The notes under the pieces are model-generated. The model was not told the origin of the DNA. It worked only from the letters and a program-made list of their open reading frames with translations, and did not search any database. DNA of 64,000 bases. Origin: Pseudomonadota bacterium (GTDB lineage Bacteria; Pseudomonadota; Gammaproteobacteria; Steroidobacterales; Steroidobacteraceae). The DNA lies in NCBI GenBank assembly GCA_023391335.1, contig JAEWBG010000059.1, positions 504 to 64,503 of the forward strand, written 5' to 3'. Of this stretch, positions 3,522-63,606 are shown one piece after another (positions within the stretch are counted from its first letter, which is position 1; each line of letters starts with the position of its first letter). A program made the position numbers and the translations under genes.

Positions 3522-3522
3522 A

Positions 3523-3773
3523 GAAGAATATTTCCACGGAGGACACGGAGAGCACGGAGGAATGGACGCAACACAAAGATCGCATAGGTCGAATACTAGA
3601 GGATTAAGCCATCGGTCCATCGATCCGAGCCTGAAATCGAGCAGCGGATCTGCGGGTGGCTTTCGCGCTGTGGCTTCGCTAAGGCCTATAAATCAACCTT
3701 TGTGCGCTTTGTGTTGCGTCTTATTCTTGGATCTCTACTCCGTGATCCCCGTGTTCTCCGTGTGAAATTCTTC
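3523..3773. repeat. Family A palindromic element (CACGGAG units, 9-nt period), carrying a nested family E element
   Basis: The left arm is GAAGAATATTTC-CACGGAG-GA-CACGGAG-AG-CACGGAG, with units at 3535, 3544 and 3553. The right arm is CTCCGTG-AT-CCCCGTG-TT-CTCCGTG-TGAAATTCTTC, with units at 3738, 3747 and 3756, and is its reverse complement. The element fills the gap between the convergent stop codons 3519-3521 and 3775-3777. Confidence 0.85.
3564..3720. repeat. Family E palindromic element (GGACGCAACACAAAG arms) nested inside the family A element
   Basis: GGACGCAACACAAAGATCGCA (3564-3584) and TGTGCGCTTTGTGTTGCGTC (3701-3720) are reverse complements. The same arm pair recurs at 30031/30131 and as a solo arm at 18229. 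Confidence 0.8.
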
Positions 3774-3774
3774 T

Positions 3775-9398: not shown

Positions 9399-10658
9399 AT
9401 GTTCCCCGCTAACACTCGCATCGCCGATTTCGACCCCGAACTGCAGCAATCCATCGACGCGGAAAAGCAGCGTCAGGAAGATCACATCGAGTTGATCGCT
9501 TCGGAAAATTACGCCAGCCCGCGCGTCCTGGAGGCACAAGGTTCGGTGCTCACGAACAAGTACGCTGAAGGCTATCCCGGCAAGCGCTACTACGGCGGCT
9601 GCGAGTTTGTCGATATCGCGGAGAAGCTCGCGATCGATCGCGCCAAGAAGTTGTTCGGCGCCGCATACGCGAACGTACAGCCTCACTCCGGTTCGCAAGC
9701 AAATGCTGCCGCGTACCTTGCACTGGTGAATCCAGGCGACACGATTCTCGGCATGAGCTTGGATCATGGCGGGCATCTCACGCACGGCGCGAAGGTCAAC
9801 TTCTCAGGCAAGGTGTTCAAAGCCGTTCAATACGGACTGAATCCTGCAACTGGCGAGATCGACTACGAGCAAGTCGAACGCCTCGCACAGGAGCATCGTC
9901 CGCGGCTAGTGATCGCAGGATTTTCGGCGTATTCGCGAGTCGTCGATTGGGCGCGCTTTCGCAAGATTGCGGATTCGATCGGCGCCTACTTCCTCGTCGA
10001 TATGGCGCACGTTGCAGGTCTCGTTGCAACTGGCGTGTATCCTAGCCCCATTCCACATGCTGACGTCGTGACGACAACGACTCACAAGACGCTGCGCGGT
10101 CCCCGCGGTGGCATGATCTTGGCGCGCGCGAACGAGGAAATTGAGAAGAAACTCAACTCGCTCGTGTTCCCTGGAACCCAGGGCGGCCCGTTGATGCACG
10201 TGATTGCGGCAAAGGCGGTTTCCTTCCTCGAAGCCCTGCAGCCCGAATTCACGACGTATCAACAGCAAGTGCTCGCAAACTCGCGTGCCATGGCAGCGGC
10301 CTTGATGAAGCGCGGTTACAAGATCGTTTCAGGCGGCACTGACAATCACTTGTTCCTTCTCGATCTGATCGACAAGAACATCACCGGAAAGGATGCAGAC
10401 GCCGCACTCGGCCGCGCGCACATCACCGTGAACAAGAATGCGGTGCCAAACGATCCGCGTCCGCCGTTTGTGACCAGCGGTCTGCGTATTGGAACGCCTG
10501 CAGTCACTACACGCGGCTTCAAGGAAGCCGAAGTCACGGAACTCGCGAACTGGATTGCCGACGTTCTCGACGAAAATGGCAGCGAAGGCGTCATCAACCG
10601 CGTTCGCGGCAAGGTCGAGGAGATCTGCAAGCGCTTTCCGGTGTACGCGCCAGGGTGA
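9399..10658 (+). CDS. glyA: serine hydroxymethyltransferase
   Basis: 419 aa. The PLP-lysine block [16 protein letters not shown] is present, GGAGGG lies upstream of the ATG, and similarity to SHMT runs the full length. Confidence 0.95.
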
Positions 10659-10745
10659 GGGAGTGAGTAAAGTGAGGAAGTGAAAGGCGACAGTCAGTGC
10701 TACTCAGCAACGACGTTCACCTCCTCACCACCCTCACTTTCTCAC
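10653..10745. repeat. Family D palindromic element (GTGAG-rich arms)
   Basis: The left arm is GGGTGAGGGAGTGAGTAAAGTGAGGAAGTGAAAGG (10653-10687) and contains the glyA stop TGA 10656-10658. The right arm is TTCACCTCCTCACCACCCTCACTTTCTCAC (10716-10745). 23 of 30 positions are complementary, and the GTGAG cores are conserved. Confidence 0.8.
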
Positions 10746-10751
10746 AATCCC

Positions 10752-14113: not shown

Positions 14114-14273
14114 GAGAAGAGTCTCCACGGAGCACACGGAGGGCACGGAGCGGAAATGCAAAAGGAAGCCGTTGTGACGGCAAATTCGATTTTGCGCTCC
14201 ATTGATGGGGAAACTTCAAGCGATTCCCAATACTCATCTCCGTGTTCTTGTGATCTCTGTGCAGATATCTTCC
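14113..14273. repeat. Family A palindromic element (CACGGAG, 9-nt period)
   Basis: The left arm is GGAGAAGAGTCTC-CACGGAG-CA-CACGGAG-GG-CACGGAG, with units at 14126, 14135 and 14144. The right arm is CTCCGTG-TT-CTTGTG-AT-CTCTGTG-CAGATATCTTCC, with units at 14238, 14247 and 14255. It begins on the last base of the ribB stop. Confidence 0.85.
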
Positions 14274-14330
14274 GGTTCTTAGGTGCGAAGGTCGTCTAGG
14301 CGGCTATACTTCCCGCCCCGAATTCCACCC

Positions 14331-15395: not shown

Positions 15396-15423
15396 CATTC
15401 GCTATCCGCAATCCGCTATTCAC
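15396..15423. repeat. solo family B arm (pyrimidine orientation)
   Basis: CATTCGCTATCCGCAATCCGCTATTCAC is the reverse complement of GTGAATA-GCGGATT-GCGGATA-GCGAATG. It ends 13 nt before the thiL ATG. I see no partner arm after the nusB stop. Confidence 0.7.
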
Positions 15424-18228: not shown

Positions 18229-18263
18229 GGACGCAACACAAGGAACGCAAAGAACAAGAAAAA
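18229..18263. repeat. solo family E arm
   Basis: GGACGCAACACAAGGAACGCAAAGAACAAGAAAAA lies 31 nt after the kinase stop. It is followed by the hairpin GAACGCA(18274-18280)/TGCGTTC(18297-18303). Confidence 0.65.
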
Positions 18264-18433
18264 TAGCCGCAGAGAACGCAAAAAAGAAATCCAAGGTGCG
18301 TTCTGCCCGATTCGTCGAAGCTCGTGTCTACATGAGTAGTGCGCTTGCTTCCCGAATCGATGACGGCCGGTCCTCGTCAGGGTGACAAGCTTGGTGTTGG
18401 CACACGGGGGGCCTCGAATTCACACTGTCAACC

Positions 18434-18485
18434 GTGACCCGTGACCTCTTGCTAGTCACTAGTCACTAGTCACCAGTCACTTCTC
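18434..18485. repeat. Family B mini-palindrome overlapping the folE2 stop codon
   Basis: GTGACCC-GTGACC (18434-18446), then TCTTG, then CTAGTCAC-TAGTCAC-TAGTCAC-CAGTCAC-TTCTC (18452-18485). On the folE2 strand this reads GAGAAG-TGA..., so the folE2 TGA (18477-18479) lies in the first GTGACT unit. Confidence 0.8.
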
Positions 18486-22516: not shown

Positions 22517-22612
22517 GTCGGTGAGTACAGATCTGGGCGGGTACGAGGGCGCGGCAAGCTTGCATTCCTGCCTGCGACCGGTCAAATGCACAACGTGACT
22601 AAAGTTCGGTCG

Positions 22613-22641: not shown

Positions 22642-22651
22642 CGCACCCGCA

Positions 22652-22666: not shown

Positions 22667-22783
22667 CGGCACGGTTTTTCACCAGCGGAAAGTTACTAAC
22701 GGCAGCGCACGCTTCCGGCAGCGGACTTTTCGTTGCGAATGGCCTACGCAATCACGCAACGATACTTAAGTGAGGATCCTGCA

Positions 22784-23200: not shown

Positions 23201-23233
23201 CTAGTGACTTGTGACTAGTGACTAGCGGATAGG
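23201..23233. repeat. solo family B arm (purine orientation) immediately after the rubrerythrin stop
   Basis: CTAGTGACTTGTGACTAGTGACTAGCGGATAGG starts on the base after TAA 23198-23200. Confidence 0.8.
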
Positions 23234-23241
23234 TCAGAAAA

Positions 23242-23265
23242 CTCGCGCCCGATCTCGGGCGCGAG
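23242..23265. terminator. perfect GC-rich hairpin (possible terminator)
   Basis: CTCGCGCCCGA-TC-TCGGGCGCGAG has an 11-bp perfect stem. It is preceded by AAAA, and there is no T-tract on the + strand, so function and direction are uncertain. Confidence 0.4.
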
Positions 23266-23313
23266 TGGTCGACGATCCAAAGCGATTTAGCGGAAGACAG
23301 ACGGCTGGTTGGG

Positions 23314-23356
23314 TCTCTGGCTCCAGCCCCGGGTCTCCGGTCTCCAGCCTCCAGCC
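23314..23356. repeat. solo family C arm (pyrimidine orientation)
   Basis: TCTCTGG-CTCCAGC-CCCGGG-TCTCCGG-TCTCCAG-CCTCCAG-CC is the reverse complement of GGCTGGAG-type units. It ends 11 nt before the ATG at 23368. Confidence 0.75.
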
Positions 23357-23367
23357 TGCGAAGCTCC

Positions 23368-24717
23368 ATGTCCCAAGAAAAATCCGGTCCAGCGCGCGAA
23401 GGCAGTCTCGAAGCTCCGACGCGTCATCCGATCGCGTGGAAAGATCCTCAGTATTTAGACGAAAACCTGCTCTTCAAAGAGCTGGAACGTGTGTTCGACA
23501 TCTGCCATGGATGCCGCCGCTGTTTCAGTCTCTGCAATGCGTTCCCAACGTTGTTCGATGCGGTGGATGAGTCGAGTACGGGCGAAGTCGAGAGCGTCGA
23601 TCGCAAGGTGTACTGGGATGTCGTAGATCATTGTTACCTCTGCGACATGTGTTACATGACGAAGTGCCCATACGTTCCGCCGCACCCTTGGAACGTGGAC
23701 TTTCCGCATTTGATGCTGCGCGCGAAAGCATTCAAGTTCAAAAATCAGCCCGTCAAAACGCGCGACAAGATCCTGAGCTCGACCGACGCTGTCGGCAGCA
23801 TCGCCGGGATTCCCGTCGTGTCCGAAGTGGTGAACACGGTGAATCGCACCGCATTCGGCCGCTCGATGCTCGACAAAGTGCTGGGCGTGCATCCGCAAGC
23901 CCCGATTCCCGAATATCACAGTCCTTCCTACCGCAAGCGCTTCGCTAAAGCTAAGCACCCGCAAATCACAGCGACACCTGCAGGTGAGACCAAAGGCAAG
24001 GTGGCACTTTTCGCGACCTGCTATGGCAATCGCAATGAGCCGGCACTCAACGAAGATTTAGTCGCGATTTTCGAGCACAACGGCATCCCTGTGACGATCG
24101 CGGCGCAGGAGAAGTGCTGCGGCATGCCCAAGTTGGAATTGGGCGATTTGGAATCGATCGAGAAGCTCAAAGAAGAAAACATTCCAGCGTTGGTGAAGTT
24201 GGTCGATCAAGGCTGGGACATCGTGACGCCGGTGCCATCGTGCACGTTGATGTTCAAACAAGAATTGCCGCTCATGTTTCCCGACGATGAGCGCGTGCAG
24301 AAAGTCCGAGATGCGATGTTCGATCCGTTCGAATATCTCTGGGAACGCTACAAGGCGGGTTTGTTGAAGACCGAATTCAAACATCGCCTGGGCAAGATCA
24401 GTTATCACGTGCCGTGCCATTTGCGCGTGCAGAACCTTGGGCTAAAAACTCGGGATGTGCTGATGCTGGTGCCGGAAACGCACGTCGAGCCGATCGAACG
24501 CTGCTCTGGTCATAACGGAACTTATGGCGTGAAGCGCGAGTACCGGGATACGTCGATGAAGATCGGCAAGCCCGTGTTTCGTCGCGTTGCCGATTCCGGC
24601 GCGGACCACTACTCGAGCGACTGCCCGATGGCGGGGCATCAAATCGAATCTGGATTGGAAGGGAACAAGGAACCGACGCATCCGCTGACCCTGCTTCGCA
24701 GGGCTTACGGAATATAG
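23368..24717 (+). CDS. (Fe-S)-binding protein, heterodisulfide-reductase / GlcF-like (two 4Fe-4S motifs plus CCG domains)
   Basis: CHGCRRCFSLCNAFP, CYLCDMCYMTKCPYVPPH and CCGMP are present. 449 aa. Confidence 0.75.
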   Translation: MSQEKSGPAREGSLEAPTRHPIAWKDPQYLDENLLFKELERVFDICHGCRRCFSLCNAFPTLFDAVDESSTGEVESVDRKVYWDVVDHCYLCDMCYMTKCPYVPPHPWNVDFPHLMLRAKAFKFKNQPVKTRDKILSSTDAVGSIAGIPVVSEVVNTVNRTAFGRSMLDKVLGVHPQAPIPEYHSPSYRKRFAKAKHPQITATPAGETKGKVALFATCYGNRNEPALNEDLVAIFEHNGIPVTIAAQEKCCGMPKLELGDLESIEKLKEENIPALVKLVDQGWDIVTPVPSCTLMFKQELPLMFPDDERVQKVRDAMFDPFEYLWERYKAGLLKTEFKHRLGKISYHVPCHLRVQNLGLKTRDVLMLVPETHVEPIERCSGHNGTYGVKREYRDTSMKIGKPVFRRVADSGADHYSSDCPMAGHQIESGLEGNKEPTHPLTLLRRAYGI

Positions 24718-24753
24718 GAAAGGATCTCCGCGGAGCTCACCGAGCACACGGAG
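24718..24753. repeat. solo family A arm (purine orientation)
   Basis: GAAAGGATCTC-CGCGGAG-CT-CACCGAG-CA-CACGGAG, with units at 24729, 24738 and 24747 (9-nt period). It starts right after the stop TAG 24715-24717. Confidence 0.75.
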
Positions 24754-24774
24754 AAACGACCTCAGGAACTTGCT

Positions 24775-25389
24775 ATGCATCTGCGCAAACTTACTCGCAC
24801 CGACTTGATGAGCCTCGAGCAGTACTCGACGGCGCGCAAAGATTTTCGTGCGAAGGTCATCGATCACAAGAGCCGTCGCACGATCGCCGTCGGCCCGAAC
24901 GCCACGTGGTGCTTCGAAGATCAGTTGACGGTGCAATACCAAGTACAAGAAATGTTGCGAGTGGAACGCATCTTCGAAGCGGCGGGGATCCAAGACGAAC
25001 TCGACGCGTACAACCCGCTGATTCCCGATGGAAGCAATTGGAAGGTCACGTTCTTGATCGAATTTCCTGATCCGAGTGAGCGTCGTGAGCGCCTGGCGCA
25101 GATGAAGGGAATCGAAGATCGCTGCTGGGTTCAGGTTTCGGGGTTCGATCGCGTCTTTGCCATTGCGGATGAAGACCTCGAACGGGGGAACGACGAGAAG
25201 ACCTCGTCCGTGCACTTCTTGCGCTTCGAGCTCACGCCACAAATGTCCTCTGCCGCGCAGCAGGGGGCAGATATCTCGATCGGTATCGATCATCCGGCGT
25301 ATTCCCATTCGGTGTCGCCGCTTCCCAAATCCTCTCGCGATTCTCTTGCCAAGGATCTTGGCGAACCGGTTGAAGCGCATCGCGCTTAG
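24775..25389 (+). CDS. DUF3501-like protein of unknown function
   Basis: 204 aa. From memory, the N-terminus (TRTDLMSLEQYSTARKDFRAKVIDHK) resembles the DUF3501 family, which I recall as commonly adjacent to this type of Fe-S protein and rubrerythrin. This was not verified by a search. Confidence 0.6.
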   Translation: MHLRKLTRTDLMSLEQYSTARKDFRAKVIDHKSRRTIAVGPNATWCFEDQLTVQYQVQEMLRVERIFEAAGIQDELDAYNPLIPDGSNWKVTFLIEFPDPSERRERLAQMKGIEDRCWVQVSGFDRVFAIADEDLERGNDEKTSSVHFLRFELTPQMSSAAQQGADISIGIDHPAYSHSVSPLPKSSRDSLAKDLGEPVEAHRA

Positions 25390-25398
25390 GGGCAGACC

Positions 25399-25575
25399 GG
25401 AGGTATCTCCACGGAGTACACGGAGAGCACGGAGAGAAGATAAACGATCGGAACTGAGCGAACGTTGAAGGACCACGGCTCGTGGCGTCCGATCAATCAT
25501 TGCGCCCGTTCTCTCCAGTTCTGAGGCCGTTCTCCGTGTCCTCTGTGCTCTCCGTGGAGATATTCCTTTTCTTCC
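25399..25575. repeat. Family A palindromic element (CACGGAG, 9-nt period)
   Basis: The left arm is GGAGGTATCTC-CACGGAG-TA-CACGGAG-AG-CACGGAG, with units at 25410, 25419 and 25428. The right arm is CTCCGTG-TC-CTCTGTG-CT-CTCCGTG-GAGATATTCCTTTTCTTCC, with units at 25532, 25541 and 25550. Confidence 0.85.
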
Positions 25576-25696
25576 ACAACGGGTCCTCATGTTTTGCCTG
25601 ACCGAATCGCGCTCGAGCGCATGCTAGACTCGCCGCAAAGGCCGGGCGCTCACTAAAGTGTCCTGCGATTCCAACACCTAATCTCGTTCGGTAGCG

Positions 25697-27583
25697 ATGT
25701 CATATACCGCTTCAGATATTGAAGTCCTCAGCGGACTCGATCCCGTGCGCCGTCGGCCCGGGATGTACACGGATACCAGTCGCCCCAATCACCTCGCGCA
25801 TGAAGTCGTCGACAACTCCGTCGACGAAGCGCTTTCTGGCCACGCGAAGCGCATCGACGTTACCGTCTTCAAAGACGGTTCGTTGCAAGTCGCCGACGAC
25901 GGGCGCGGGATGCCGGTCGACATTCACCCGAAAGAGAAGGTGAGCGGTGTCGAATTAATTCTGACGCGCCTGCACGCGGGCGGTAAGTTCTCAGACAAGA
26001 ACTACAAATTCTCCGGCGGTTTGCATGGCGTCGGCGTCTCTGTCGTGAATGCACTCTCCAAGCATCTCGAGTGCTGGGTGAAGCGCGGCGGCAAGGAATA
26101 CAACATCAGCTTCAAGGACGGGAAGGCCAAGTCCAAGCTTGAAGTTGTCGGCGATGTCGGCAAGAACAACACCGGCACCACTGTGCGGTTTTGGCCGGAT
26201 CCGCAGTATTTCGAGTCGCCGACGATCTCGATTCCCAAGCTGAAACACGTGTTGCGCGCCAAGGCCGTGCTGTGTCCCGGCCTGAAGATGACGCTGCATG
26301 TCGAGCAGACCGGCGAGAAAGAAGAATGGCTCTACACCGGTGGCCTCACGGAATACTTACGCGAAGCGCTCGGAGACGGCGAGTGGCTGCCGCAAGAGTT
26401 GTTCACTGGCGCGATCGAAGGCGAAAAGGAAGCAGCGGAGTGGGCACTCGCGTGGCGCGTCGATGAAGGTCCCAAGGTCGAAGAGAGCTACGTCAATCTG
26501 ATTCCGACGGCGCAAGGTGGCACACATGTCAATGGCTTGCGTGTTGGACTCACCGATGCGATTCGTGAGTTCTGCGAATTCCGCAATCTCTTGCCGAAAG
26601 GTCTGAAGCTCGCGCCGGAAGATGTGTGGGATGGATTGAGCTACGTGCTCTCCACCAAGATGAAAGAAGCGCAGTTTGCGGGGCAGACCAAAGAGCGACT
26701 GTCTTCGCGTGAAGCCGCGGCGTTTGTCTCGGGTGTCGTTAAAGATCAATTCGGCTTGTGGCTAAACCAACATCCTGAAAGCGGCGAGAAGATCGCGCAG
26801 CTCGCCATTGCGGGTGCGCAGGCGCGACTGAAGGCGTCGAAGTCGGTGGCACGTAAACGCGTGGTCAGCGGACCGGCGCTGCCGGGCAAACTTGCCGATT
26901 GCACCTCGCAAGAGCCGGAGCGCTCAGAGCTCTTCTTGGTGGAGGGCGACTCTGCAGGTGGCTCCGCGAAGCAAGCGCGCGATCGTGAATTCCAGGCCGT
27001 GATGCCATTGCGCGGCAAGATCCTGAACACATGGGAAGTCGAAGCCGGCGATGTGCTGCAATCACAAGAAGTGCATCACATCGCGATTGCGATTGGCGTC
27101 GATCCCGGCTCCGATAACCTGACTGGTTTGCGTTACCACAAGATCTGCATCCTGGCCGATGCGGACTCTGACGGTCAGCACATCGCGACGTTGCTGTGCG
27201 CATTGTTCTTGCGTCACTTCCGTCCCCTGGTTTTGGCCGGCCACGTGTACGTTGCGATGCCGCCGCTGTTTCGCGTCGATGTGGGCAAGCAGGTTTACTA
27301 CGCACTCGATGAGGCTGAGCGAGCCGGCATTCTCGATCGCATTGCTGCCGAAAATCCGCGCGCGAAGCCAACTGTCACGCGCTTCAAAGGTCTCGGCGAA
27401 ATGAGCGCGATGCAACTGCGCGAAACGACGATGGCACCCGAGACGCGTCGGTTGGTCCAGCTCACCGTCGAAGCCAAAGACGAAGCCGACCAAATGCTGG
27501 ATATGCTGCTCGCGAAAAAGCGTGCCGCCGATCGCCGCGAATGGCTCGAGACGAAGGGAAACCTTGCAGAAGTGCAGGTGTAA
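25697..27583 (+). CDS. parE: DNA topoisomerase IV subunit B
   Basis: 628 aa, lacking the insertion seen in proteobacterial GyrB. The GHKL block is HLAHEVVDNSVDEAL. The Toprim blocks are LFLVEGDSAGGSAKQARDREFQAVMPLRGKILN and ILADADSDGQHI. parC follows. Confidence 0.9.
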   Translation: MSYTASDIEVLSGLDPVRRRPGMYTDTSRPNHLAHEVVDNSVDEALSGHAKRIDVTVFKDGSLQVADDGRGMPVDIHPKEKVSGVELILTRLHAGGKFSDKNYKFSGGLHGVGVSVVNALSKHLECWVKRGGKEYNISFKDGKAKSKLEVVGDVGKNNTGTTVRFWPDPQYFESPTISIPKLKHVLRAKAVLCPGLKMTLHVEQTGEKEEWLYTGGLTEYLREALGDGEWLPQELFTGAIEGEKEAAEWALAWRVDEGPKVEESYVNLIPTAQGGTHVNGLRVGLTDAIREFCEFRNLLPKGLKLAPEDVWDGLSYVLSTKMKEAQFAGQTKERLSSREAAAFVSGVVKDQFGLWLNQHPESGEKIAQLAIAGAQARLKASKSVARKRVVSGPALPGKLADCTSQEPERSELFLVEGDSAGGSAKQARDREFQAVMPLRGKILNTWEVEAGDVLQSQEVHHIAIAIGVDPGSDNLTGLRYHKICILADADSDGQHIATLLCALFLRHFRPLVLAGHVYVAMPPLFRVDVGKQVYYALDEAERAGILDRIAAENPRAKPTVTRFKGLGEMSAMQLRETTMAPETRRLVQLTVEAKDEADQMLDMLLAKKRAADRREWLETKGNLAEVQV

Positions 27584-27759
27584 GGAGAAGTGACTGGCGG
27601 ATAGCGGATAGCGGATTGGAACAGAGGACATAGGTCCACCTCCGTCGTTTAGCTAAAGGCTGGTACTTCGATCGCGACTGCCTCGCATGATCGTATCCAA
27701 GGCAATGCAGATGTCGTTTCGCCGGTTCGTGCTTCTTCTATCCGCTAGTCACTAGTCAC
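27584..27759. repeat. Family B palindromic element filling the parE-parC junction
   Basis: The left arm is GGAGAA-GTGACTG-GCGGATA-GCGGATA-GCGGATT-GG (27584-27619). The right arm is CTTCTTC-TATCCGC-TAGTCAC-TAGTCAC (27732-27759). The unit numbers differ between the arms. Confidence 0.85.
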
Positions 27760-27774
27760 CATCCAACTTCCTAC

Positions 27775-30027
27775 ATGCCCACCCAACCACCCCTCAACTT
27801 CGAAGGCATCGAACGGCTGCCACTGCGGACGTTCACGGAAAAGGCGTATCTCGACTACTCGATGTACGTCATTTTGGATCGCGCATTGCCGAACATCGGC
27901 GATGGCTTGAAGCCGGTGCAGCGACGCATCGTGTATGCGATGAGCGAACTCGGGTTGTCCGCAGCCTCGAAGCACAAGAAGTCGGCGCGCACGATCGGCG
28001 ATGTGATCGGCAAGTTTCATCCGCACGGCGACTCTGCTTGTTACGAAGCGATGGTCCTCATGGCTCAGCCGTTTTCGTATCGCTATCCGCTGGTGGATGG
28101 CCAAGGCAATTTCGGGTCGCCGGACGATCCGAAATCGTTCGCGGCGATGCGTTACACGGAATCGCGTCTGACGCGTTACTCGGCGCTGCTGCTTTCGGAG
28201 TTGGGGCAGGGCACGGTCGATTGGGCGCCGAACTTCGATGGCACGCTCGAAGAACCGGTGTTGTTGCCGGCGCGGGTGCCGAACGTACTCTTGAATGGCG
28301 CGACGGGTATCGCGGTCGGTATGGCGACGGATATTCCGCCGCACAATCTGCGCGAAGTGGTCACAGCGTGTATTCGATTGCTCGAAGATCCGGATGTGAC
28401 CCTGAAGGAGCTGTGCAAGCACGTCCAAGGTCCCGATTTTCCGACGGGCGCCGAGATCATTTCGCCGCGCGCTGAGATTCGTCAGATCTACGAGACCGGC
28501 AACGGCTCAATCCGCGCACGGGCTGTTTATGAGATCGAAGACGGCGACATCGTCATCACGCAATTGCCCTATCAAGTCTCCGGCAGCCGCATTCAAGAAC
28601 AGGTCGCCGCACAGATGCAGGCGAAGAAACTGCCGATGGTCGAGGACATCCGCGATGAGTCCGATCACGAGCATCCGACTCGCATCGTGATTGTGCCGCG
28701 CTCCAATCGCGTGGATATCGAACAGTTGATGGCGCACTTGTTCGCGACGACTGATCTCGAGCGCACCTATCGAGTGAATCTCAACATCATCGGCCTCGAT
28801 GGTCGGCCGAAGGTGATGGGTCTCAAGACGTTGCTCGAAGAATGGTTGACGTATCGCATCAACACCGTCACCAGGCGTTTGAATTGGCGCCTGGAAAAAG
28901 TGCAGGCGCGGTTGCACATCCTCGAAGGCTTGCTTGCTGCCTACCTCAATTTGGATGAAGTGATCCGCATCATCCGTCGGGAAGAAGAGCCAAAACCGGT
29001 GCTGATGAAGCGCTTCAAGTTAAGCGAGATTCAAGCCGAGGCAATACTCGAAACCAAGTTGCGCCACTTGGCGAAGCTCGAAGAGATGAAGATCCGCGGC
29101 GAACAAAAGGAATTGGCCGAAGAGCAAGAAGAACTGGACAAGATCCTCAAGAGCAAAGCGCGTCTGCGTAAGCTCGTGCGCGACGAACTCGAAAAGGATG
29201 CAAAAGAGTTCGGCGATGATCGGCGCAGCCGCATCGTGGAGCGCGCAGCCGCACAGGCAATCGACGAAACATCTCTTGTTACGAGCGAACCGATGACGGT
29301 TGTGCTGTCGGAGCGTGGGTGGGTGCGCGCCGCCAAAGGACACGACATCGATCCGGCGACGCTCTCATATAAGACAGGCGATGCGTTCCAATCGGCAGCA
29401 CGCGGCAAGAGCACGCAGCAAGCCGTATTCCTCGATAGCACCGGCCGCGCCTACAGCTTGCTCGCACACACGCTGCCGTCCGCTCGCGGTCAAGGCGAGC
29501 CGTTGTCGGGTCGCATCGATCCGCCGGAAGGCGCGACGTTCGCGGGCGTGATGATTGGCGATCCAGAGGATCGCTGGGTGGTGGCTTCCGATGCGGGCTA
29601 TGGATTTGTCGTGAAGCTGGAAGAGCTGCATTCGCGCAATCGCGCCGGCAAGGCGGTGCTCAAGGTTCCCGAAAAGTCTGGTGTGCTCGCCCCGGCCCCG
29701 GTGCCTGCGAGCGATGAAGCGTTGCTATGCGCCGTGAGCTCGGACGGCAAGTTGCTCGCGTTCCCAGTAAAGGATCTGCCGGAACTTCCACGCGGCAAGG
29801 GCAATAAGATTTTTGGCCTTTCATCCAAGAAGGTGGAGAGCCGCGATGAGTTCTTGGCAGCGATCGCTGTCGTATCGCCCGATCAGAATCTCATCGTGCG
29901 TTCAGGCGATCGCAAAATGACCCTGAAGTTCTCTGAGCTCAAAGACTATCGCGGCGAACGCGCACAGCGTGGTGCGGTGCTGCCGCGTGGCTGGCGCAAG
30001 GTTGAGCGATTGGAAGTGGAAGGCTGA
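27775..30027 (+). CDS. parC: DNA topoisomerase IV subunit A
   Basis: 750 aa. The active-site Tyr block is [12 protein letters not shown], and [24 protein letters not shown] is the N-terminal signature. Confidence 0.9.
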
Positions 30028-30030
30028 TCC

Positions 30031-30153
30031 GACGTAACACAAAGAGCACATAAATTCGAAAGTAGGTCGGCTCGTTCGATACGCAACGCGCCGTCTGTGA
30101 CCCCAGCCCGATCGTTTTTCGATTTTTCTCTGCGCGCTTTGTGTTGCGTCCGG
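30031..30153. repeat. Family E palindromic element between convergent parC and the FimX-like gene
   Basis: GACGTAACACAAAGAGCACA (30031-30050) pairs with TGCGCGCTTTGTGTTGCGTCCGG (30131-30153). About 20 of 23 positions are complementary. Confidence 0.8.
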
Positions 30154-30163
30154 CTCTTCGCTG

Positions 30164-32221
30164 TCAGCCGATGACGACTTGCTCGGGCTCATTCACGAAG
30201 TAGCCCTGAATGAACTCGATGCCGAGCTGCCACAGCACGGCCATGGTGTTCGCGTCTTCGACGCGCTCGGCGATCGTCGCGACTTTCTTTCCCTTCGCCT
30301 GATCCACGAGCTCGCGAACTTTCTGTTGTAGGTTCGGATCGACTGCTAATCCCTGCATCAGCGTGCCGTCGACCTTGATGAAGTTGATCGGCAAGTGAGC
30401 CAGCAACCGCGAAGGATCGCGTCCCGTGCCGAAGTGTTCGAGCGCGAATAAAAATCCTGCTTTGCGCAACCCGCCGACGAGATCCGTCGTGTCGGCAAGA
30501 TATTCGGTGGCGACTTGCTCGCTGATTTGAAACGCGATGCGTTGCGGGTCGATGCGGCTTGCTTTTAATTGATTCGAGAGCCACTGCACGAGCGACTTGT
30601 CGCGGACAGAATCCTTCGACAGGCGCACGAAGAGTTGCTTCACAGGACGACTGGCGCAGAAAGTCATCGAAGCGCCGATGATCCAGCGATCGATGTTCTT
30701 CATCAGATCATTGCGTTCGGCGGCGGCCATGAATTCTGCGGGCAGAAGCTCTTGCCCCGACTCGTCGACCATGCGCACCAGCACGTCGTACATGCCGCGA
30801 TCTTCGCCGAGTAGGCTCGCGATCGGCTGTTGCATGAGACGGAAGCGGTTCTCCATGAGCGCCGCTTTGATATGGCGCACCCAGATTTCATCCGCCGCTT
30901 GGCGCTTAGTGTCTTCGTCCTGGTGATCGATGACGACAACGCGCTTGCCGCCGGCTTCCTGGGCATTGCGACGCGCCGTGATCGCATCGTTGATCGACAG
31001 CTCGATGTTTGGACTTCGAGGGTCGATGGCGCCGACACCGATGCTGCACGTGCAAGAGATTTGTTTCTCGCCGACGCGGAAGACTTGCGCCGAAACTTTC
31101 TTGATCAAGTTGTTGGCCCAGACCTCGACATCCCGAGGTGTGCCGCGCTCCATGAGTAACATCAGGGCGCCGTCGCCCATCCGTCCGAAAAGATCTCCGG
31201 ACTGCCGCGTTTCCCCGACGAGTCCCGCGAATTGTCCGATGAAGTCTTCGACCGCGAGGGGGCCTAAGTCATCGCAGAGTGCGGCGAGCTTGTCAGGTTC
31301 GACCGAGACAAGTTGGCGAATGCCGGCCTTGATGGGGTGTGCGAGCGACTTCCTCAATCGCTCGATGAAGAACTTGCGTTGCAAGGCGCCGGTTGCCGCA
31401 TCGCGCTCGAGCGCGTCGTTTAGCTGATCGTTCAGATGCGTCGTGCTGTTCGTCGGTTTTGTCGAAGGAATGCACAAGCGAACCGCCGGTTCAGAGTCGA
31501 ACTCGACCTTGGACAGCTCCATTTCCAGCGGAACCGGCGACCCATCGCTCAAGATCGCATTCGCCTTCAACACGTGGTCCGACCACCGGCCTTGCAGGCA
31601 GGCGACCAAGGCACCTTTGATGGCGGCGTGCGCTTCGGAATCGAAGGTGTCCATCAACGGCGTGCCGACGATCGAGTCCACGTCGGGAATTCCGAAGAGC
31701 TCTAGCCACGCAGGATTCGCGTCGACGACGATGCCTTCTTGCACGTGGGCGATCGCGTCGGCGGAGCCGGCCATGAATGACTTGAGCTGTTCTCGATACT
31801 CGCGTGCGGCGCTGACTGTCGCGTTGAGCTCTCGTGCCTGACGATGCGCTTCGAGTTCGCGATGGACGACCGCTTGCAAGCGTTGGGGATGCTTCAGCGT
31901 CACGACGTCGCGTGCACCTTGTTGCATTGCCGCGGCGATGATTTCTTCATCGACTTGATCGCGCGCGATGATCACGGGAACCGTCGGGCCGAACTGATTG
32001 CGCACAGACATGATCTTGGTCGTGTCCGCTGGGTCCGGCCCCACGAAGGCAATCAGCATGTGAGCATTGATCTGCGCCAGCGCATCGGCGAGATCGTTGA
32101 GTTCACGAATCCAACTGCAGCGAGCTGCCGTGCCGCCGTTGCGCAAGGTGCTGTTGATCGCTTCGACGTTGTCCTGATGACGCGTCAGAACGATCATCGG
32201 CACTGCACTTTGTTCGGCCAA
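30164..32221 (-). CDS. REC-PAS-GGDEF-EAL signalling protein with all catalytic motifs degenerate (FimX-like c-di-GMP sensor candidate)
   Basis: 685 aa. The GGDEF position reads RMGDGALMLL. The EAL position reads MYDVLVRM. Metal-ligand blocks are substituted: FVRLS where NLS is expected, FQISEQ for LEITE, and ALEHFGTG for ALDDFGTG. The receiver-like N-terminus has no Asp at the expected acceptor site (AHMLIAFVG). Confidence 0.7.
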   Translation of the reverse strand: MAEQSAVPMIVLTRHQDNVEAINSTLRNGGTAARCSWIRELNDLADALAQINAHMLIAFVGPDPADTTKIMSVRNQFGPTVPVIIARDQVDEEIIAAAMQQGARDVVTLKHPQRLQAVVHRELEAHRQARELNATVSAAREYREQLKSFMAGSADAIAHVQEGIVVDANPAWLELFGIPDVDSIVGTPLMDTFDSEAHAAIKGALVACLQGRWSDHVLKANAILSDGSPVPLEMELSKVEFDSEPAVRLCIPSTKPTNSTTHLNDQLNDALERDAATGALQRKFFIERLRKSLAHPIKAGIRQLVSVEPDKLAALCDDLGPLAVEDFIGQFAGLVGETRQSGDLFGRMGDGALMLLMERGTPRDVEVWANNLIKKVSAQVFRVGEKQISCTCSIGVGAIDPRSPNIELSINDAITARRNAQEAGGKRVVVIDHQDEDTKRQAADEIWVRHIKAALMENRFRLMQQPIASLLGEDRGMYDVLVRMVDESGQELLPAEFMAAAERNDLMKNIDRWIIGASMTFCASRPVKQLFVRLSKDSVRDKSLVQWLSNQLKASRIDPQRIAFQISEQVATEYLADTTDLVGGLRKAGFLFALEHFGTGRDPSRLLAHLPINFIKVDGTLMQGLAVDPNLQQKVRELVDQAKGKKVATIAERVEDANTMAVLWQLGIEFIQGYFVNEPEQVVIG

Positions 32222-32311
32222 CTGGCAAGTCTCCGCGATTGAAGGGATTACGCGCTTGAAGATCGCGTCATCGAGATATCGGCCGGGATTGTAGCATCTG
32301 AAATCGGTCGC

Positions 32312-33361
32312 TTAAGGGATTGCCGTCACAGGCATTTTTGCGGGTGCCCCGGCGATCTCACGCACGAGTTTCGGGACCAAATAGCCTGGCAGACGGGCCG
32401 CCAGTTGGGTGTGAATTTCCAGCGCTTTGGCGTCTGCGATCGCAAAATGGGCTGCACCGGCCACCTTGTCTAGCACGTGCAAGTAATAGGGCAGGACGCC
32501 CACCGCGAAGAGGGCCTCGCTCAACTCAGCCAGCGTCGAGGCATCGTCATTTACGCCTGCCAAGAGCACGCTCTGATTGAGTAGCGTCACACCTCGTTCT
32601 CGCAATCGAGTGCACGCCGATCGAACACTGTCGTCGATCTCTTGAGCATGGTTGGCGTGGATCACCAAGACCTTCTGAAGCGACACTCCTTCCAGCCACG
32701 CAAGCAGTCCTGCATCGACACGCTCCGGCAAAACGATCGGGTACCGCGTGTGAATACGCAGGCGCTTCACGTGCGGTACGGTCGCAAGCTGATCAGTGAG
32801 CTGAATCAGCCGCCGATCGCTTAGGCTCAAAGGGTCGCCGCCGCTCAGAATGACTTCGTTGACGCTGGTATCCGCACGCACCTGGTCTAGGGCGGCGCTC
32901 CAGCCGTTCTGCAAAGCCGATTCGTCCGAATAGGGGAAGTGACGCCGAAAACAATATCGACAGTGCACCGCGCAGGCGCCCGTCGCGATCAAGAGTGCTC
33001 GCCCTTCGTACTTATGTAGCAATCCGGTTGCAGCACGGCTCAAGAGATCGCCGACGGGATCAACCCCGAATCCGGCCACTGCTTTTTCCTCAGCGGCGAA
33101 TGGGAATACCTGCAGCAGGAGTGGGTCGTTCGCGTCGCCACGGCGCATGCGGGAGACGAAGCCTCGTGGGACTTTCAATGGAAATTCACGCAGGGCGCTG
33201 GCGCCCGGGGACATCTGCTCGAGGTCGATGTTCAGCAGTCGACACAGTTCATCGGCGGAGCTGACTGCATCCGCGAGTGCTTTACGCCAGGCGACGGGCT
33301 CGATCGAGGCTTCCGCCGACGATGCGATGAACTGGCTAGAGAGGGAGGTTGCGGCTATCAT
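32312..33361 (-). CDS. epmB: EF-P beta-lysylation protein EpmB (lysine 2,3-aminomutase-like radical SAM)
   Basis: The radical SAM motif [15 protein letters not shown] is present. It is divergent from efp. I chose the ATG at 33361; the track ORF starts 15 codons upstream. Confidence 0.85.
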
Positions 33362-33995: not shown

Positions 33996-34040
33996 GAGCT
34001 AGTGACTCGCGGATAGCGGATAGCGGATAGAAGAAAAAAG
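33996..34040. repeat. solo family B arm (purine orientation) directly after the efp stop
   Basis: GAGCTA-GTGACTC-GCGGATA-GCGGATA-GCGGATA-GAAGAAAAAAG. I see no convincing partner arm before the convergent gene at 34143. Confidence 0.8.
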
Positions 34041-34142
34041 CGTGGGTCGGGGATCGTGGATCGCCGAACCCTGCCGCACACGGATGTGCTAATGCCGCGG
34101 GAGGCAGGACGCTGAGAGCGGCCGAACCCGGATGTGACCTGC

Positions 34143-37136: not shown

Positions 37137-38033
37137 ATGAGTAATCCGTTGCCCACAAAAACTGTCCGACAGTGGATTGAATTCGGCGCTGCCAAGTTCG
37201 ATGAGGCGGGGCTATGGTTCGGCCACGGATCCGACAACGCATTCGACGACGCCGCAGAACTCGTGTTCTTCGCTGCCGGATTGCGCCACGAAGAAGCGGA
37301 CTCTGTGTACAACCAGCCGGTCGCGAGCGGCCAAGCAGCTCGCATCAACGAACTCTTCGATCGACGCGTTCGCGAGCGCGTGCCCGCCGCTTACCTCACG
37401 CAGCGGATGTGGTTCGCGGGCCATGAGTTCTATGTCGATGAACGCGTGTTGGTTCCAAGATCTCCGATTGCGGAATTGATTGAGGCGCGATTCGAGCCTT
37501 GGATCGCGAGCGCGCGCATCCATCGACTGTTGGATATCGGTACCGGCTCTGGGTGCATCGCAATTGCGGCGGCTTTGGCGCTGCCCGACGCCCGAGTGGA
37601 TGCGAGCGATATTTCCGCCGATGCGCTCGAGGTCACGAAGATGAATATTGCGCGCTACGGACTCGAAGGGCGCGTGAGTGCCATTCAGTCCGATGTGTTC
37701 GATGGGCTTGGGTCAGCTCGCTACGACGTCATCGTCTCCAACCCTCCCTACGTGGGTGATGACGAGATGGCTTCCCTTCCGCACGAATACACGCGTGAGC
37801 CGCGCTTGGCGTTGCATTCCGGGGTCGATGGTTTGGATATCACACGTCGAATCCTGCAGGGCGCTCGCGAACATCTGACTGCCGGTGGAATCTTGATCGT
37901 CGAAGTCGGCAACTCTGAAGTCGCCTTGGAAGAAGCGTATCCCGAGGTGCCCTTTACCTGGCTCGAGTTCGAACGCGGCGGCGGCGGAGTGTTCGTGCTG
38001 ATGGCGGACCAGCTGGAAGCTAGTGACTGGTGA
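37137..38033 (+). CDS. prmB: 50S ribosomal protein L3 N5-glutamine methyltransferase
   Basis: The SAM block LDIGTGSGCIAIAAA and the catalytic VSNPPYV are present. It lies upstream of aroC, as in E. coli. The last four codons (ASDW) and the TGA lie inside family B repeat units. Confidence 0.8.
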   Translation: MSNPLPTKTVRQWIEFGAAKFDEAGLWFGHGSDNAFDDAAELVFFAAGLRHEEADSVYNQPVASGQAARINELFDRRVRERVPAAYLTQRMWFAGHEFYVDERVLVPRSPIAELIEARFEPWIASARIHRLLDIGTGSGCIAIAAALALPDARVDASDISADALEVTKMNIARYGLEGRVSAIQSDVFDGLGSARYDVIVSNPPYVGDDEMASLPHEYTREPRLALHSGVDGLDITRRILQGAREHLTAGGILIVEVGNSEVALEEAYPEVPFTWLEFERGGGGVFVLMADQLEASDW

Positions 38034-38234
38034 CTAGTGACTAGCGGATAGGAAGCCGATCCGGAGGGTAGATGGGATGATTCCTCGTAATCTCAGATTG
38101 GAAATCGAGTTACTGATGGCATGAGCTCGCCATTGATAGCCCCTCCGAGTTCACCCTGCAGCTGCGGATAGCGGCTAGAATGCCGCGCATCTTGGATCTC
38201 CTAGTCACTATCCGCTAGTCACTAGTCACTTCTC
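38016..38234. repeat. Family B palindromic element spanning the prmB 3' end to 6 nt before the aroC ATG
   Basis: The left arm is GAAGCTA-GTGACTG-GTGACTA-GTGACTA-GCGGATA-GGAAG, with units at 38023, 38030, 38037 and 38044. The right arm is CTCCTAGTCAC-TATCCGC-TAGTCAC-TAGTCAC-TTCTC (38198-38234). An extra internal GCGGATAGCGGCTAG lies at 38164-38178. Confidence 0.9.
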
Positions 38235-38240
38235 ATACCC

Positions 38241-43594: not shown

Positions 43595-43696
43595 GGCTAG
43601 AGGCTGGAGGCTATAGGCTGGAGGTAGGCGCACTTCGTGCGCTTCCGGTTTGCTATTCTGACCCCAGCCCCCAGTCTCCCGTCTCCAGCCTCTTCC
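43595..43696. repeat. Family C palindromic element (GGCTGGA heptamers) filling the fimV-truA junction
   Basis: The left arm is GGCTAGA-GGCTGGA-GGCTATA-GGCTGGA-GGTAGG (43595-43628, exact 7-nt phasing). The centre has the hairpin CGCAC-TTC-GTGCG. The right arm is CCCCAGC-CCCCAGT-CTCCCGT-CTCCAGC-CTCTTCC (43662-43696). Confidence 0.85.
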
Positions 43697-43699
43697 CTA

Positions 43700-56660: not shown

Positions 56661-56784
56661 CTAGTGGATAGCGGATGGCGGGCAGTGACTAGGAAGAGAG
56701 TCTTCCGAGACCGCCAAAAGTAGACCGCAGCGGGAAGTTTGGGCAGTTCTTCTGACCATTCACGATCCGCCAGTCACGAGTCAC
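56661..56784. repeat. Family B palindromic element between tRNA-His and tRNA-Lys
   Basis: The left arm is CTA-GTGGATA-GCGGATG-GCGGGCA-GTGACTA-GGAAG (56661-56696). The right arm is CTTCTGACCATTCAC-GATCCGC-CAGTCAC-GAGTCAC (56749-56784). It starts 3 nt after the tRNA-His CCA and ends 8 nt before tRNA-Lys. Confidence 0.8.
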
Positions 56785-63504: not shown

Positions 63505-63574
63505 GGGTGAGGCGTTAGGGAAGTGAAACGTGGAGAGCGCGCCGAGCCGCGCTACACCTTTCACTTGCTCACCC
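63505..63574. repeat. Family D palindromic element (GTGAG-rich arms)
   Basis: GGGTGAGGCGTTAGGGAAGTGAAACGTGG (63505-63533) pairs with CCTTTCACTTGCTCACCC (63557-63574). The centre has the hairpin AGCGCG-CCGAGC-CGCGCT. The outer GGGTGAG and inner AAGTGAAA boxes match those at 10653-10745. Confidence 0.75.
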
Positions 63575-63606
63575 GATCATATTTTTCACTTTATTCCGCA
63601 TAACCG

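Follow-up and report, generated by a model that had tools for sequence, protein, structure and literature searches.

Short G-rich sequences repeated in tandem beside stop and start codons were reported years ago in Xanthomonas and in cyanobacteria (PMC4692102). The intergenic heptamers described by Rehm et al. 2015 (PMC4692102), GGGAATC in Xanthomonas and GGGGA(C/T)T in Nostoc, lie on the coding strand at a distance of 0-50 bp to the stop codon or overlap it, and on the non-coding strand just upstream of open reading frames (ORFs). Of the two neighbours, the one on the 5' side is always closer, the repeats are scarce between divergent ORFs, and there are 70-75 convergent inverted pairs per genome. 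Most copies are transcribed, and variation among close relatives is strong; G-quadruplexes (G4) were proposed, the function being left open (PMC4692102). In this paper we describe elements built of such repeated words in a 64,000-nucleotide stretch of DNA from a member of the Steroidobacteraceae (contig JAEWBG010000059.1, positions 504 to 64,503; referred to as the window), with special regard to the copy located between the topoisomerase genes parE and parC. The elements of the window fall within the known kind of repeat, and differ from the published examples by their mosaic vocabulary, non-G4 words, purine termini, abutment on genes and cassette-like replacement.

Systems with other points of likeness are also known. 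RNA structures that couple the translation of neighbouring genes and are opened by the ribosome have been found in the MS2 coat-replicase junction, in E. coli rpmI-rplT and in the split ribosome-binding sites of T4 genes 25 and 38, and the ribosome shunt of cauliflower mosaic virus is a further structure-based translation system. The foldback (FB) transposons of Drosophila have arms made of short tandem repeats in variable number, and a heterogeneous middle that sometimes carries genes. Repetitive extragenic palindromes (REPs) of E. coli, Pseudomonas and Stenotrophomonas prefer positions downstream of genes and form inverted dimers (Di Nocera et al. 2013, PMC3733652). Among the miniature transposable elements with inverted repeats (MITEs), the Correia/NEMIS, enterobacterial repetitive intergenic consensus (ERIC) and Chunjie elements are co-transcribed with genes, and the hairpin RNA, cleaved by RNase III or exposing RNase E sites, alters the stability of the flanking message (reviewed in PMC10969869).

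A preliminary description of the window, made from the letters alone, had pointed out that the purine-rich arms start at stop codons and the pyrimidine-rich arms end just before the next start. It had suggested that the folded hairpin, if co-transcribed, could couple termination to reinitiation or unmask the downstream start, and had mentioned as a neutral alternative that the elements insert into, or are only tolerated in, the short spacers. The analysis presented here demonstrates that the placement is real and non-random, and that it is anchored to gene 3' ends, namely stop codons and tRNA ends.

Results

The element between parE and parC

The parE-parC spacer is 191 nt long and has the following features.

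27581..27583, + strand: parE stop codon TAA; the ORF (25697-27583) ends GTG TAA and the purine arm follows directly
27584..27619, + strand: purine/G-rich arm, GGAGAAG-GTGACTG-GCGGATA-GCGGATA-GCGGATT-GG, established by reading the sequence and by repeat searches; in this left arm a terminal GGAGAAG tract precedes one GTGACTG and three GCGGATA words
27620..27737, + strand: non-repeated centre of 118 nt, unique sequence, predicted hairpin loop
27738..27759, + strand: pyrimidine arm, CTATCCGC-TAGTCAC-TAGTCAC (27745-27759 in Tandem Repeats Finder, TRF)
up to 27774, + strand: CATCCAACTTCCTAC between the pyrimidine arm and the parC ATG, the CUUCC of which pairs with the AGGAG after the stop
27775..27777, + strand: parC start codon ATG, at which a 750-aa gene is called in the identical contig (see below)

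The arms were recovered by an inverted-repeat search as a 22-nt inverted repeat, 82% complementary and 126 nt apart. TRF reported the left arm at 27597-27616 (period 7, 2.9 copies, 100% match), and the copy numbers of the words are unequal, 1+3 in the left arm and 2+1 in the right. As had been stated before, the arm begins at the very next base after the parE TAA, and 15 nt separate the end of its complement from the parC ATG; counting the outer GGAG:CUUCC pairs shortens the latter distance to 1-4 nt. RNAfold paired the arms at this junction, and long stems were predicted for the junctions examined. The parE-parC spacer is predicted to form a single long hairpin of -72.6 kcal/mol (z=-2.4; 3/200 shuffles were as stable), at the base of which the AGGAG after the stop is paired with the CUUCC 4 nt before the AUG. 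There is no Shine-Dalgarno (SD) sequence within 25 nt upstream of the parC start (anti-SD duplex +1.0 kcal/mol). The spacer was scanned for sigma-70 and intrinsic-terminator patterns and for the promoter motif typical of this genome (TAnRnT with a GC-rich discriminator, see below), and none was found. Its centre (27620..27737) contains no promoter-like or terminator-like motif and has no homologue among the other spacers.

Placement and orientation

Re-measurement of the stop-to-arm distances reproduced the values given in the preliminary description: 0 nt for purL, ribBA, the Fe-S gene, parE, efp and rubrerythrin, a stop located inside the arm for glyA, prmB and folE2, and longer distances for parC (3 nt), the DUF3501 gene (9 nt), fimV (10 nt), lon (23 nt) and the kinase (31 nt). 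The arm-to-start distances were likewise confirmed for nrdR and aroC (6 nt each), tRNA-Lys (8 nt), the Fe-S gene (11 nt), thiL (13 nt) and parC (15 nt); for truA the distance is 3-7 nt, depending on the choice of arm boundary.

Comparison with random placement was made in the window, the statistics of which rest on 11-15 elements. The 11 elements in co-directional spacers lie nearer to the stop than to the start, at a mean fractional position of 0.18 versus 0.5 expected (Monte-Carlo p=3e-5). Seven of these 11 are in junctions with <=25 nt of non-element DNA, which make up 8% of the spacer nucleotides (P=5.5e-6). When counted per spacer, the frequency was similar in tight (7/24) and loose (4/21) junctions and did not depend on spacer length, thus adjacency to the start follows from stop-anchoring combined with a short spacer. 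Elements were present in 4/5 convergent and 0/5 divergent spacers (p=0.048; small sample); in loci fetched from related genomes, 3/15 divergent spacers carry arrays. Automatic detection of arrays by spacer class missed several non-tandem arms and gave one false positive, therefore the window counts were curated by eye.

The fetched loci (numbered L) gave a wider Steroidobacteraceae sample, in which genes were called by our own codon-usage scoring of ORFs, so start codons there are uncertain; L003-L020 had been ascertained with the GTGACTAG...GCGGATAG pattern. Where the outer neighbour of an array is a stop, the median distance between the two is 10 nt, and 29/38 such arrays are placed within -14..+13 nt. 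Those with a start as outer neighbour are more dispersed (median 62 nt), with a cluster at 4-18 nt. In 55/64 arrays (p=3.5e-9), and in 14/15 of those in the window, the G-rich strand has its 5' end towards whichever gene boundary is closer. Because the G-rich copy runs 5' to 3' from the gene edge into the spacer, the arm pair is purine-first on both strands.

The stop-start geometry on which the coupling proposal had been based exists at parE-parC as described, but flush placement of the same sort also occurs at convergent pairs and in the tRNA-His/tRNA-Lys spacer. It is thus not peculiar to translation signals. The simplest reading of these data is that there is one slot per gene 3' end, and that elements come to lie beside a start where the following gene is near.

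We also considered whether the element brings its own stop codon at each terminus. A stop-like triplet followed by purines was found, on the opposite strand, at 7/14 start-side termini versus 5.7%. This was dropped as independent evidence, because 4/7 of these overlap the complement of an ATG, and a T before a purine tract gives TAA, TAG or TGA almost automatically.

Other copies and vocabulary of the family

About 15 spacers of the window carry word-array arms. The copies other than that of parE-parC are as follows; convergent spacers are given without strand.

3522..3774: purL / ORF 3775-4467, convergent and nested, flush (0 nt) with both stops; reads AGAAGAAT..(CACGGAGNN)3..GACGCAACACAAAG ... 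CTTTGTGTTGCGTC..(NNCTCCGTG)3..ATTCTTCT
10650..10751, + strand: glyA-nrdR, GTGAG-type words; the glyA TGA is inside the purine arm and the nrdR ATG is at 10752
14114..14282, + strand: ribBA-ribH, GAGAAGAGTCTC(CACGGAGNN)3 ... CTCCGTG/CTCTGTG words, starting at the base after the stop
15400..15423, + strand: lone pyrimidine arm of TATCCGC words, 13 nt before the thiL ATG
18229..18485: kinase/folE2 convergent spacer, left GACGCAACACAAGG.., right (TAGTCAC)n, non-matching; the folE2 stop is inside the first word, minus strand
23201..23367, + strand: rubrerythrin to Fe-S gene, GTGACTA/GCGGATA arm at the stop, unrelated CTCCAGC arm ending 11 nt before the ATG
24718..24760, + strand: lone purine arm of CGCGGAG/CACGGAG words, starting at the Fe-S gene stop
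25399..25580, + strand: CACGGAG-type element 9 nt past the stop of the DUF3501 gene, leaving ~120 nt before parE
30031..30150: parC/GGDEF-EAL convergent spacer, GACGTAACACAAAG ... CTTTGTGTTGCGTC, 3 and 13 nt from the two stops
33996..34063, + strand: purine arrays after the efp stop, GAGCTAGTGACTC, (GCGGATA)3 and GTGGATC words
38017..38240, + strand: prmB-aroC, 22-nt perfect arm complement; prmB takes its last four codons and its stop (38031-38033) from the arm
43595..43699, + strand: fimV-truA, (GGCTRGA)4 ... CCAGTCTCCCGTCTCCAGCCTC, 10 nt past the stop; truA ATG at 43700
56661..56784, + strand: tRNA-His / tRNA-Lys, 3 nt after the first tRNA and 8 nt before the second
63505..63583, + strand: hairpin of GTGA words, 23 nt past the lon stop

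The end of prmB that is supplied by the arm reads ...AGT GAC TGG TGA. Predicted folds were of -99.9 kcal/mol (z=-5.6) for prmB-aroC and of -45 kcal/mol (z=-4.0) for glyA-nrdR.

The arms are tandem arrays of 7-9-nt G-rich words, detected by TRF as period-7 to period-9 arrays. In the window the words are GTGACTA, GCGGATA, CACGGAG, CACGGAGNN, GGCTGGA, the GTGAG type and the non-tandem GACGCAACACAAAG; related metagenome-assembled genomes (MAGs) add GCGGTTA, GTGATGA, GGTTGAC, GGGACTC, ACGGAAA, CAGGGAA and others. The vocabulary thus comprises at least a dozen words, which are combined in mosaic and nested fashion, as in the purL copy, where CACGGAG arrays lie outside ACACAAAG arms. Word k-mers are enriched 15-60 times in spacers. 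The words are usually preceded by a purine tract (GAGAAG, AGAAGAA, AGAAGAAT or GGAAGAA). Paired arms contain the same words in mirrored order and in differing copy numbers, and each arm varies in length by whole words independently of the other.

The complementarity of arm pairs that had been claimed for the elements stood at parE-parC and other junctions, but in about one copy out of three there is a single arm, or the arms are made of different word types. Lone arms are at 24718-24760, 15400-15423 and 33996-34063, and mismatched arms at 23201-23367 and, in the kinase/folE2 spacer, at 18198-18476. Single arms are not palindromes (they fold at 0 to -3 kcal/mol, with one at -10.8 via CTAG sites), and no GTAG or CGTC tag was seen in those examined. 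GGG tracts are missing from the arms of parE-parC, prmB-aroC, purL and fimV; the few words containing G3 (GGGACTC, GGGGATC) occur elsewhere. An all-against-all BLAST of spacers from the window genome aligned arms and a few short modules only, thus the centres are unrelated between copies; in the same comparison a few copies from the CAWBKN MAG did share arms together with a terminator-like centre.

In the Rfam search only tRNAs reached the gathering score, with nothing meaningful at E<=5 in 23000-39000, and a literature search with the exact word strings returned no paper. Several known classes were considered and rejected: integron attC sites, as R''/R' cores (RYYYAAC...GTTRRRY) are missing from the element ends and the flanking genes are core housekeeping genes; uptake sequences and CRISPR, on the basis of sequence features; and classic MITEs with a conserved interior, as the interiors in the window genome are not alike.

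Some side observations concern the content and distribution of the repeats. In L019 (2760-3302), (GGGACTC)n/(GAATCCC)n arms between convergent genes enclose a 120-aa ORF of PF05635 (E=4.7e-30), the family of 23S rRNA-intervening-sequence proteins; the ORF also gave a weak bAvd-like match. Foldback elements can thus carry PF05635 cargo, and the layout is reminiscent of stem-flanked rRNA intervening sequences. A dispersed module of ~55 nt, CTGCCGCACA.GGA.GTGC.AATGCCGCG..AGGCAGGACGC.GAGAGCGGCC, follows the efp arrays (34071-34128 in the window), and in related MAGs several tandem copies of it are split by CCCGTTT words (L003:5660-5800, L019:4230-4630). The 22-nt seed GTGACTAGTGACTAGCGGATAG had one match, at 897-918, in L012, a Bacteroidaceae MAG from goat caecum, which could be due to contamination, chance or transfer; all other matches were in MAGs of Steroidobacteraceae or unclassified Gammaproteobacteria (contig series DASTSB, CAWBKN, CAZKLS).

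Comparison with described systems

The window elements are of the same nature as the Rehm-type heptamers, the closest described phenomenon, and the cyanobacterial short tandemly repeated repetitive (STRR) heptamers. Tandem G-rich words, the positional and orientation rule, scarcity between divergent genes, inverted pairs capable of forming stem-loops and strain variation are common to both. In the present elements, tandem 7-nt G-rich intergenic units are found, the stop/start orientation rule holds (55/64), and divergent under-representation goes with inverted pairs (0/5 vs 4/5, small sample), but the window arms do not contain four or more G3-4 tracts. Unlike the Rehm-type repeats, the window elements use numerous word families in one genome, with periods of 7, 8 and 9, a mosaic build and a purine-tract cap; they abut genes with single-nucleotide precision, sometimes supplying the stop codon, and are exchanged by whole-spacer replacement.

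With REPs, the bacterial interspaced mosaic elements (BIMEs) and the REP doublets forming hairpins (REPINs), the elements share high copy number, extragenic location between co-directional and convergent ORFs, inverted-pair hairpins, mosaics and probable transcription. Their lifestyle is akin to that of REP/BIME elements. Extragenic downstream placement and inverted dimers were found, but not the 20-40-nt palindrome with its GTAG/CGTC tag; instead, the arms are tandem words, and the spacer between them is long (40-160 nt) and unrelated between copies. No gene for a REP-associated tyrosine transposase (RAYT) was seen in the ~64 kb and scattered loci of this genome, and a Y1_Tnp ORF was present only in the distant L091 (see below).

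Terminal inverted repeats and insertion beside or inside operons without abolishing them are features shared with the co-transcribed MITEs. The parE-parC, prmB-aroC and purL copies were inspected for target-site duplications and flanking direct repeats, which were absent, inverted termini being present; nor do the interiors conform to a MITE, as they are not conserved within the window genome. We know of no related transposase for the window elements. The FB transposons are similar in having tandem-repeat arms and a variable middle with cargo (cf. the PF05635 ORF of L019), but they are eukaryotic, of kilobase scale and have a known transposase; no evolutionary link is implied.

In common with structure-mediated coupling, the stop is at or inside the 5' side of the stem, and the 3' side covers the region upstream of the next start. 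The coupling geometry and a predicted stem are present; a single transcript is suggested by the absence of motifs, and at aroC a promoter-like motif lies between the arms. The known coupling systems are single, conserved and gene-specific, whereas the window elements are dispersed and polymorphic and occur also where there is no downstream translation.

Turnover in relatives

The parE-parC junction was compared in 80 metagenomic loci with ParC 65-85% identical to that of the window. Among ParC homologues of 65-88% identity that have parE directly upstream, ~15 loci, including the closest relative L021, show a TGATG or ATGA overlap, and in ~15 further loci the gap is 1-25 nt. From the tight or overlapping junctions of the relatives it follows that the spacer of the window's lineage arose in a junction that was translationally coupled. 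Four or five alleles were distinguished within the genus (ParC >=90% identical): a 74-nt spacer without word arms (L101); a 164-nt spacer in L104 and L103, whose (GCGGTTA)4...(TAACCGC)4 arms leave 9 nt after the stop and 8-9 nt ahead of the start, this length also being found in a 98.8%-identical strain; a 456-nt spacer with other inverted repeats (L102); and the 191-nt form of the window. None of the genus forms has a Shine-Dalgarno sequence.

Elements at the same sites in other lineages are built of other words. In L047, which belongs to an unrelated lineage, the parE-parC junction contains a CACGGAG-type element of 304 nt. The parC/EAL spacer of L022 (5242-5400) contains telomere-like (TTAGGGG)4 and (CCCCTAA)3 arms, flush with both stops and surrounding a terminator-like hairpin; L026 has GGTTATTC arms in this spacer and L035 a CGCAGAGG array, while L021 shows only a plain hairpin there and L023 nothing. 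The elements of L047 in parE-parC and those of L022, L026 and L035 after the parC stop are of independent origin. In a distant lineage (L091:2248-2784, ParC 65% identical) the parE-parC spacer contains a Y1 transposase ORF, IS200-like (PF01797, E=7.5e-7) and RAYT-like in appearance, with GT-rich repeats flanking it. Different repeat systems have evidently settled repeatedly in the parE-parC junction.

Strains of 93-99% identity differ by exchanges of entire spacers, reaching from one stop codon to the other. In strains 98-99% identical, the efp and kinase/folE2 spacers are swapped from the stop codon on (TGA vs TAA), and in strain L002 the efp arrays, stop codon included, have been swapped for CACGGAG words. 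Three alleles of the kinase/folE2 spacer were found; it is wholly replaced in L017, and complete and nested in L010. Since the 93%-identical L010 keeps complete nested arms, the mismatched form of the window is a deletion derivative. Around two replaced spacers the identity of the flanks differs: 94.6% on one side and 99.2% on the other at kinase/folE2 (L017 vs window 16277-23265), and 99.6% vs 98.0% in L002 (vs window 33320-40811). The elements may mark recombination breakpoints (n=2).

For prmB-aroC, spacer alleles of 73, 89, 92, 148 and 207 nt were found. The centre (window 38053-38195 vs L002) differs by 20/142 substitutions (14%) and 19 gap columns, compared with 3.3% at 4-fold degenerate sites (binomial p=5e-8), that is, the loop is hypervariable. 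Purifying selection on the prmB-aroC arms was not detectable (1/73 changes vs 3.3% at 4-fold sites). The possibility that this junction was, too, ancestrally tight was rejected, as relatives have a 73-89-nt spacer with a conserved promoter-like motif.

Transcription and initiation signals

A promoter-like motif specific to this genome, TAnRnT (often TAGAAT or TATACT) with a G+C-rich 8-mer immediately after it, has a density in spacers four times that in genes. Sites are at 38176-38189, 9366, 22636, 25625, 46884, 47645, 53160, 56095 and 57014, and the motif occurs upstream of glyA, rubrerythrin, parE (25625) and the tRNA operon. At 38176 it is present as TAGAATGCCGCGC in the centre of the prmB-aroC element and is kept in relatives of 90-95% identity; with the exception of the most distant, L109, the alleles of this spacer share the TAGAAT core and a G+C-rich stretch. 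The arms therefore appear to flank an aroC promoter, the right arm lying in the aroC leader, and aroC could be transcribed with the pyrimidine arm only.

In window 1-60000, hairpins with a U-tract were no commoner than in shuffled sequences (16 vs 18.6, 22 vs 19.2 and 18 vs 18.7), and a scan with the sigma-70 consensus gave fewer sites than in shuffles. Promoters and 3' ends in this organism appear to be marked by other signals.

The preliminary description had pointed out that nrdR, parC, aroC and truA have no GGAG-like Shine-Dalgarno sequence, unlike other genes of the window. This is true of parC, and anti-SD complementarity is weaker in arm-downstream genes than in other genes (p=0.014). 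As a special property of arm-downstream genes, however, it was rejected, because the genome as a whole is SD-poor: only ~19% of the other window genes have a strong Shine-Dalgarno (anti-SD duplex <= -6 kcal/mol), and about half have essentially none. Many leaders in the window are A/C- or C/U-rich, the start calls being partly uncertain. Folding energies and G.U counts of 19 co-directional elements showed no bias between sense and antisense strands (9/19 favour sense, p=0.69).

Genomic setting

The window has a G+C content of 58.7% and a gammaproteobacterial gene order. One identical and one 98%-identical contig were found, both from Steroidobacteraceae MAGs, and the ParC cluster to which the window belongs carries the label Povalibacter sp.; this is the genus meant in the allele comparisons. 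The identical contig has a called 628-aa parE gene with topoisomerase Pfam domains. NCBIfam supported the assignments of purL, glyA, nrdR, ribBA, ribH, nusB, thiL, the Ser/Thr kinase, folE2, rubrerythrin, the GlpC-like Fe-S protein, efp, prmB, aroC, fimV and truA; that of the DUF3501 gene was borne out by Pfam.

Discussion

The explanation that we favour, and to which we would give about an even chance of being correct, is that the elements are word-array foldback repeats of fast turnover tolerated at gene edges, and that opening by the ribosome makes the insertion between parE and parC tolerable. The parE-parC copy is one member of a lineage-wide class of intergenic word-array foldback elements. 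Arrays would persist wherever they are harmless, in the dead margins of spacers and above all just behind stops, and where the next gene is close the second arm would necessarily end just before its start. At parE-parC, the element would have been inserted into an ancestrally overlapping stop/start junction and would be transcribed through. The 5' base of the hairpin would fall within the footprint of a ribosome terminating on parE, and each termination would open the stem and expose the C/U-rich parC start, which has no Shine-Dalgarno. Opening by the ribosome would then be the condition that makes insertion into an essential operon tolerable, not a device evolved by the element. The neutral alternative raised in the preliminary description, that the elements are tolerated only at such places, fits the whole data set better than coupling.

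That the parE-parC junction was ancestrally tight is shown by the junctions of relatives, and its spacer is free of recognizable promoter and terminator motifs. Since there is no such motif in the spacer, parC is most likely on a transcript running through the element. With the parC start 4-15 nt past the base of a stem of about -70 kcal/mol, the other side of which is at the parE stop, unmasking by termination would be coherent. From the known ribosome footprint, a ribosome terminating at the parE stop would open roughly the first 10 pairs of the stem. Ribosome-dependent unmasking of parC is thus possible and, on the predicted fold, physically coherent; we infer co-transcription, formation of the hairpin in vivo and opening of the stem by the terminating ribosome. 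Coupling cannot explain the family as a whole.

A number of points weigh against tolerated foldback repeats as the full explanation. We found neither a mobilizing enzyme nor a target-site duplication, and no empty/filled pair that was clean. The 0-nt abutment at convergent stops and the G-first order of all word families are not obviously accounted for by tolerance alone. A hairpin of about -70 kcal/mol in an essential coupled operon looks costly, which may indicate a benefit. Despite swapped words, 3/5 genus alleles keep the order stop, purine arm, pyrimidine arm, start, and the exchange of GCGGATA for GCGGTTA is accompanied by a matching change in the partner arm; this retained layout could reflect selection for the hairpin. 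To these should be added that genes in the fetched loci were called by our own ORF scoring and that loci were ascertained with the GTGACTAG pattern.

Alternatively, the elements could be selected RNA hairpins at gene ends, the transcribed stem having a function such as protection from 3' exonucleases, processing by RNase III between cistrons, or termination without a U-tract at convergent genes. We consider this possible but unlikely. It would agree with the long, near-perfect stems that are predicted, with the fact that U-tract terminators are not above the shuffled level, yet 4/5 convergent pairs carry elements, and with the classic terminator hairpin enclosed by some copies of related MAGs (L007, L018, L010); such a mode of action has been described for REPs and Correia/ERIC elements (PMC3733652; PMC10969869). 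The G-first rule common to every word family could also be accounted for, as purine-first order would be favoured if the C-rich arm were never single-stranded, so that Rho could not load. Yet stability is equal in the sense and antisense directions, roughly every third copy has a lone arm or arms that do not match, the arms are no more conserved than 4-fold sites (1/73 vs 3.3%), and arm-less alleles exist at the same junctions. Termination within parE-parC or ribBA-ribH would, moreover, be harmful.

A more elaborate possibility, which we regard as a long shot, is that in this lineage stop-anchored foldback repeats have repeatedly replaced overlapping coupling in essential operons such as parE-parC with a ribosome-gated hairpin. 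The ribosome ending on the upstream gene would melt the base of the stem and so release the next start, devoid of a Shine-Dalgarno, for initiation, and the purine-first order would prevent a free C-rich arm on which Rho could load. If this were true, the repeats would be a means of mobile, modular rewiring of operon junctions and not passive passengers.

Equally improbable, in our judgement, is a dedicated device for translational coupling or shunting that joins the stop with the next start and replaces Shine-Dalgarno-dependent initiation. Such a device would be in keeping with stops that are within the 5' arm or 0-13 nt from it and starts that follow the 3' arm at 3-15 nt, as well as with the ancestrally overlapping parE/parC junction, the parE-parC spacer devoid of promoter and terminator motifs and the layout kept in the word-swapped alleles L103 and L104. 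The flush geometry is, however, also seen at convergent pairs (0 and 0 nt in purL/ORF3775) and between tRNAs, single or mismatched arms are common, and the per-spacer frequency is independent of the tightness of the junction. The weaker anti-SD complementarity of arm-downstream genes (p=0.014) speaks for it; against this, the genome is SD-poor overall and the arm-less L101 also has no Shine-Dalgarno. The conserved promoter-like motif for aroC between the arms and the lack of strand bias in folding are further points to its disadvantage.

Least probable is a DNA-level structure or binding array (G-quadruplex/i-motif, cruciform, gyrase, integration host factor or another protein, for which we know of no candidate) or a repair scar, in which G-rich repeats would have been added to 3' ends at breaks in the spacer: words at parE-parC have no G3 tracts, so the G4 reading is not transferable, mirrored arms of the same words would arise more easily by inverted-repeat copying than by independent addition to ends, and the conserved terminal purine tract suggests defined element ends. 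Symmetry on the two strands with no RNA strand bias, the G-rich strand running 5' to 3' into the spacer from both edges, replacement of whole spacers up to the coding boundaries, the hypervariable centre and the G4 formed in vitro by Xanthomonas and Nostoc words (PMC4692102) are the observations in its favour.

Conclusions

The positional and orientation rule spans many unrelated, mostly non-G4 words. As it holds for words unable to form G-quadruplexes, the published structural explanation is not general. New features are the anchoring to gene 3' ends at nucleotide resolution, tRNA ends included, and the wholesale exchange of spacers between near-identical strains. The copy in the formerly overlapping junction of the essential topoisomerase genes offers a cheap and concrete test of hairpin-gated translation of a downstream gene. 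If hairpins gate translation, thousands of similar junctions in soil Proteobacteria would need to be re-read; if they do not, the elements would provide a useful case in which compact genomes tolerate quickly evolving DNA, selfish or born of slippage, at the very borders of genes and nowhere else.

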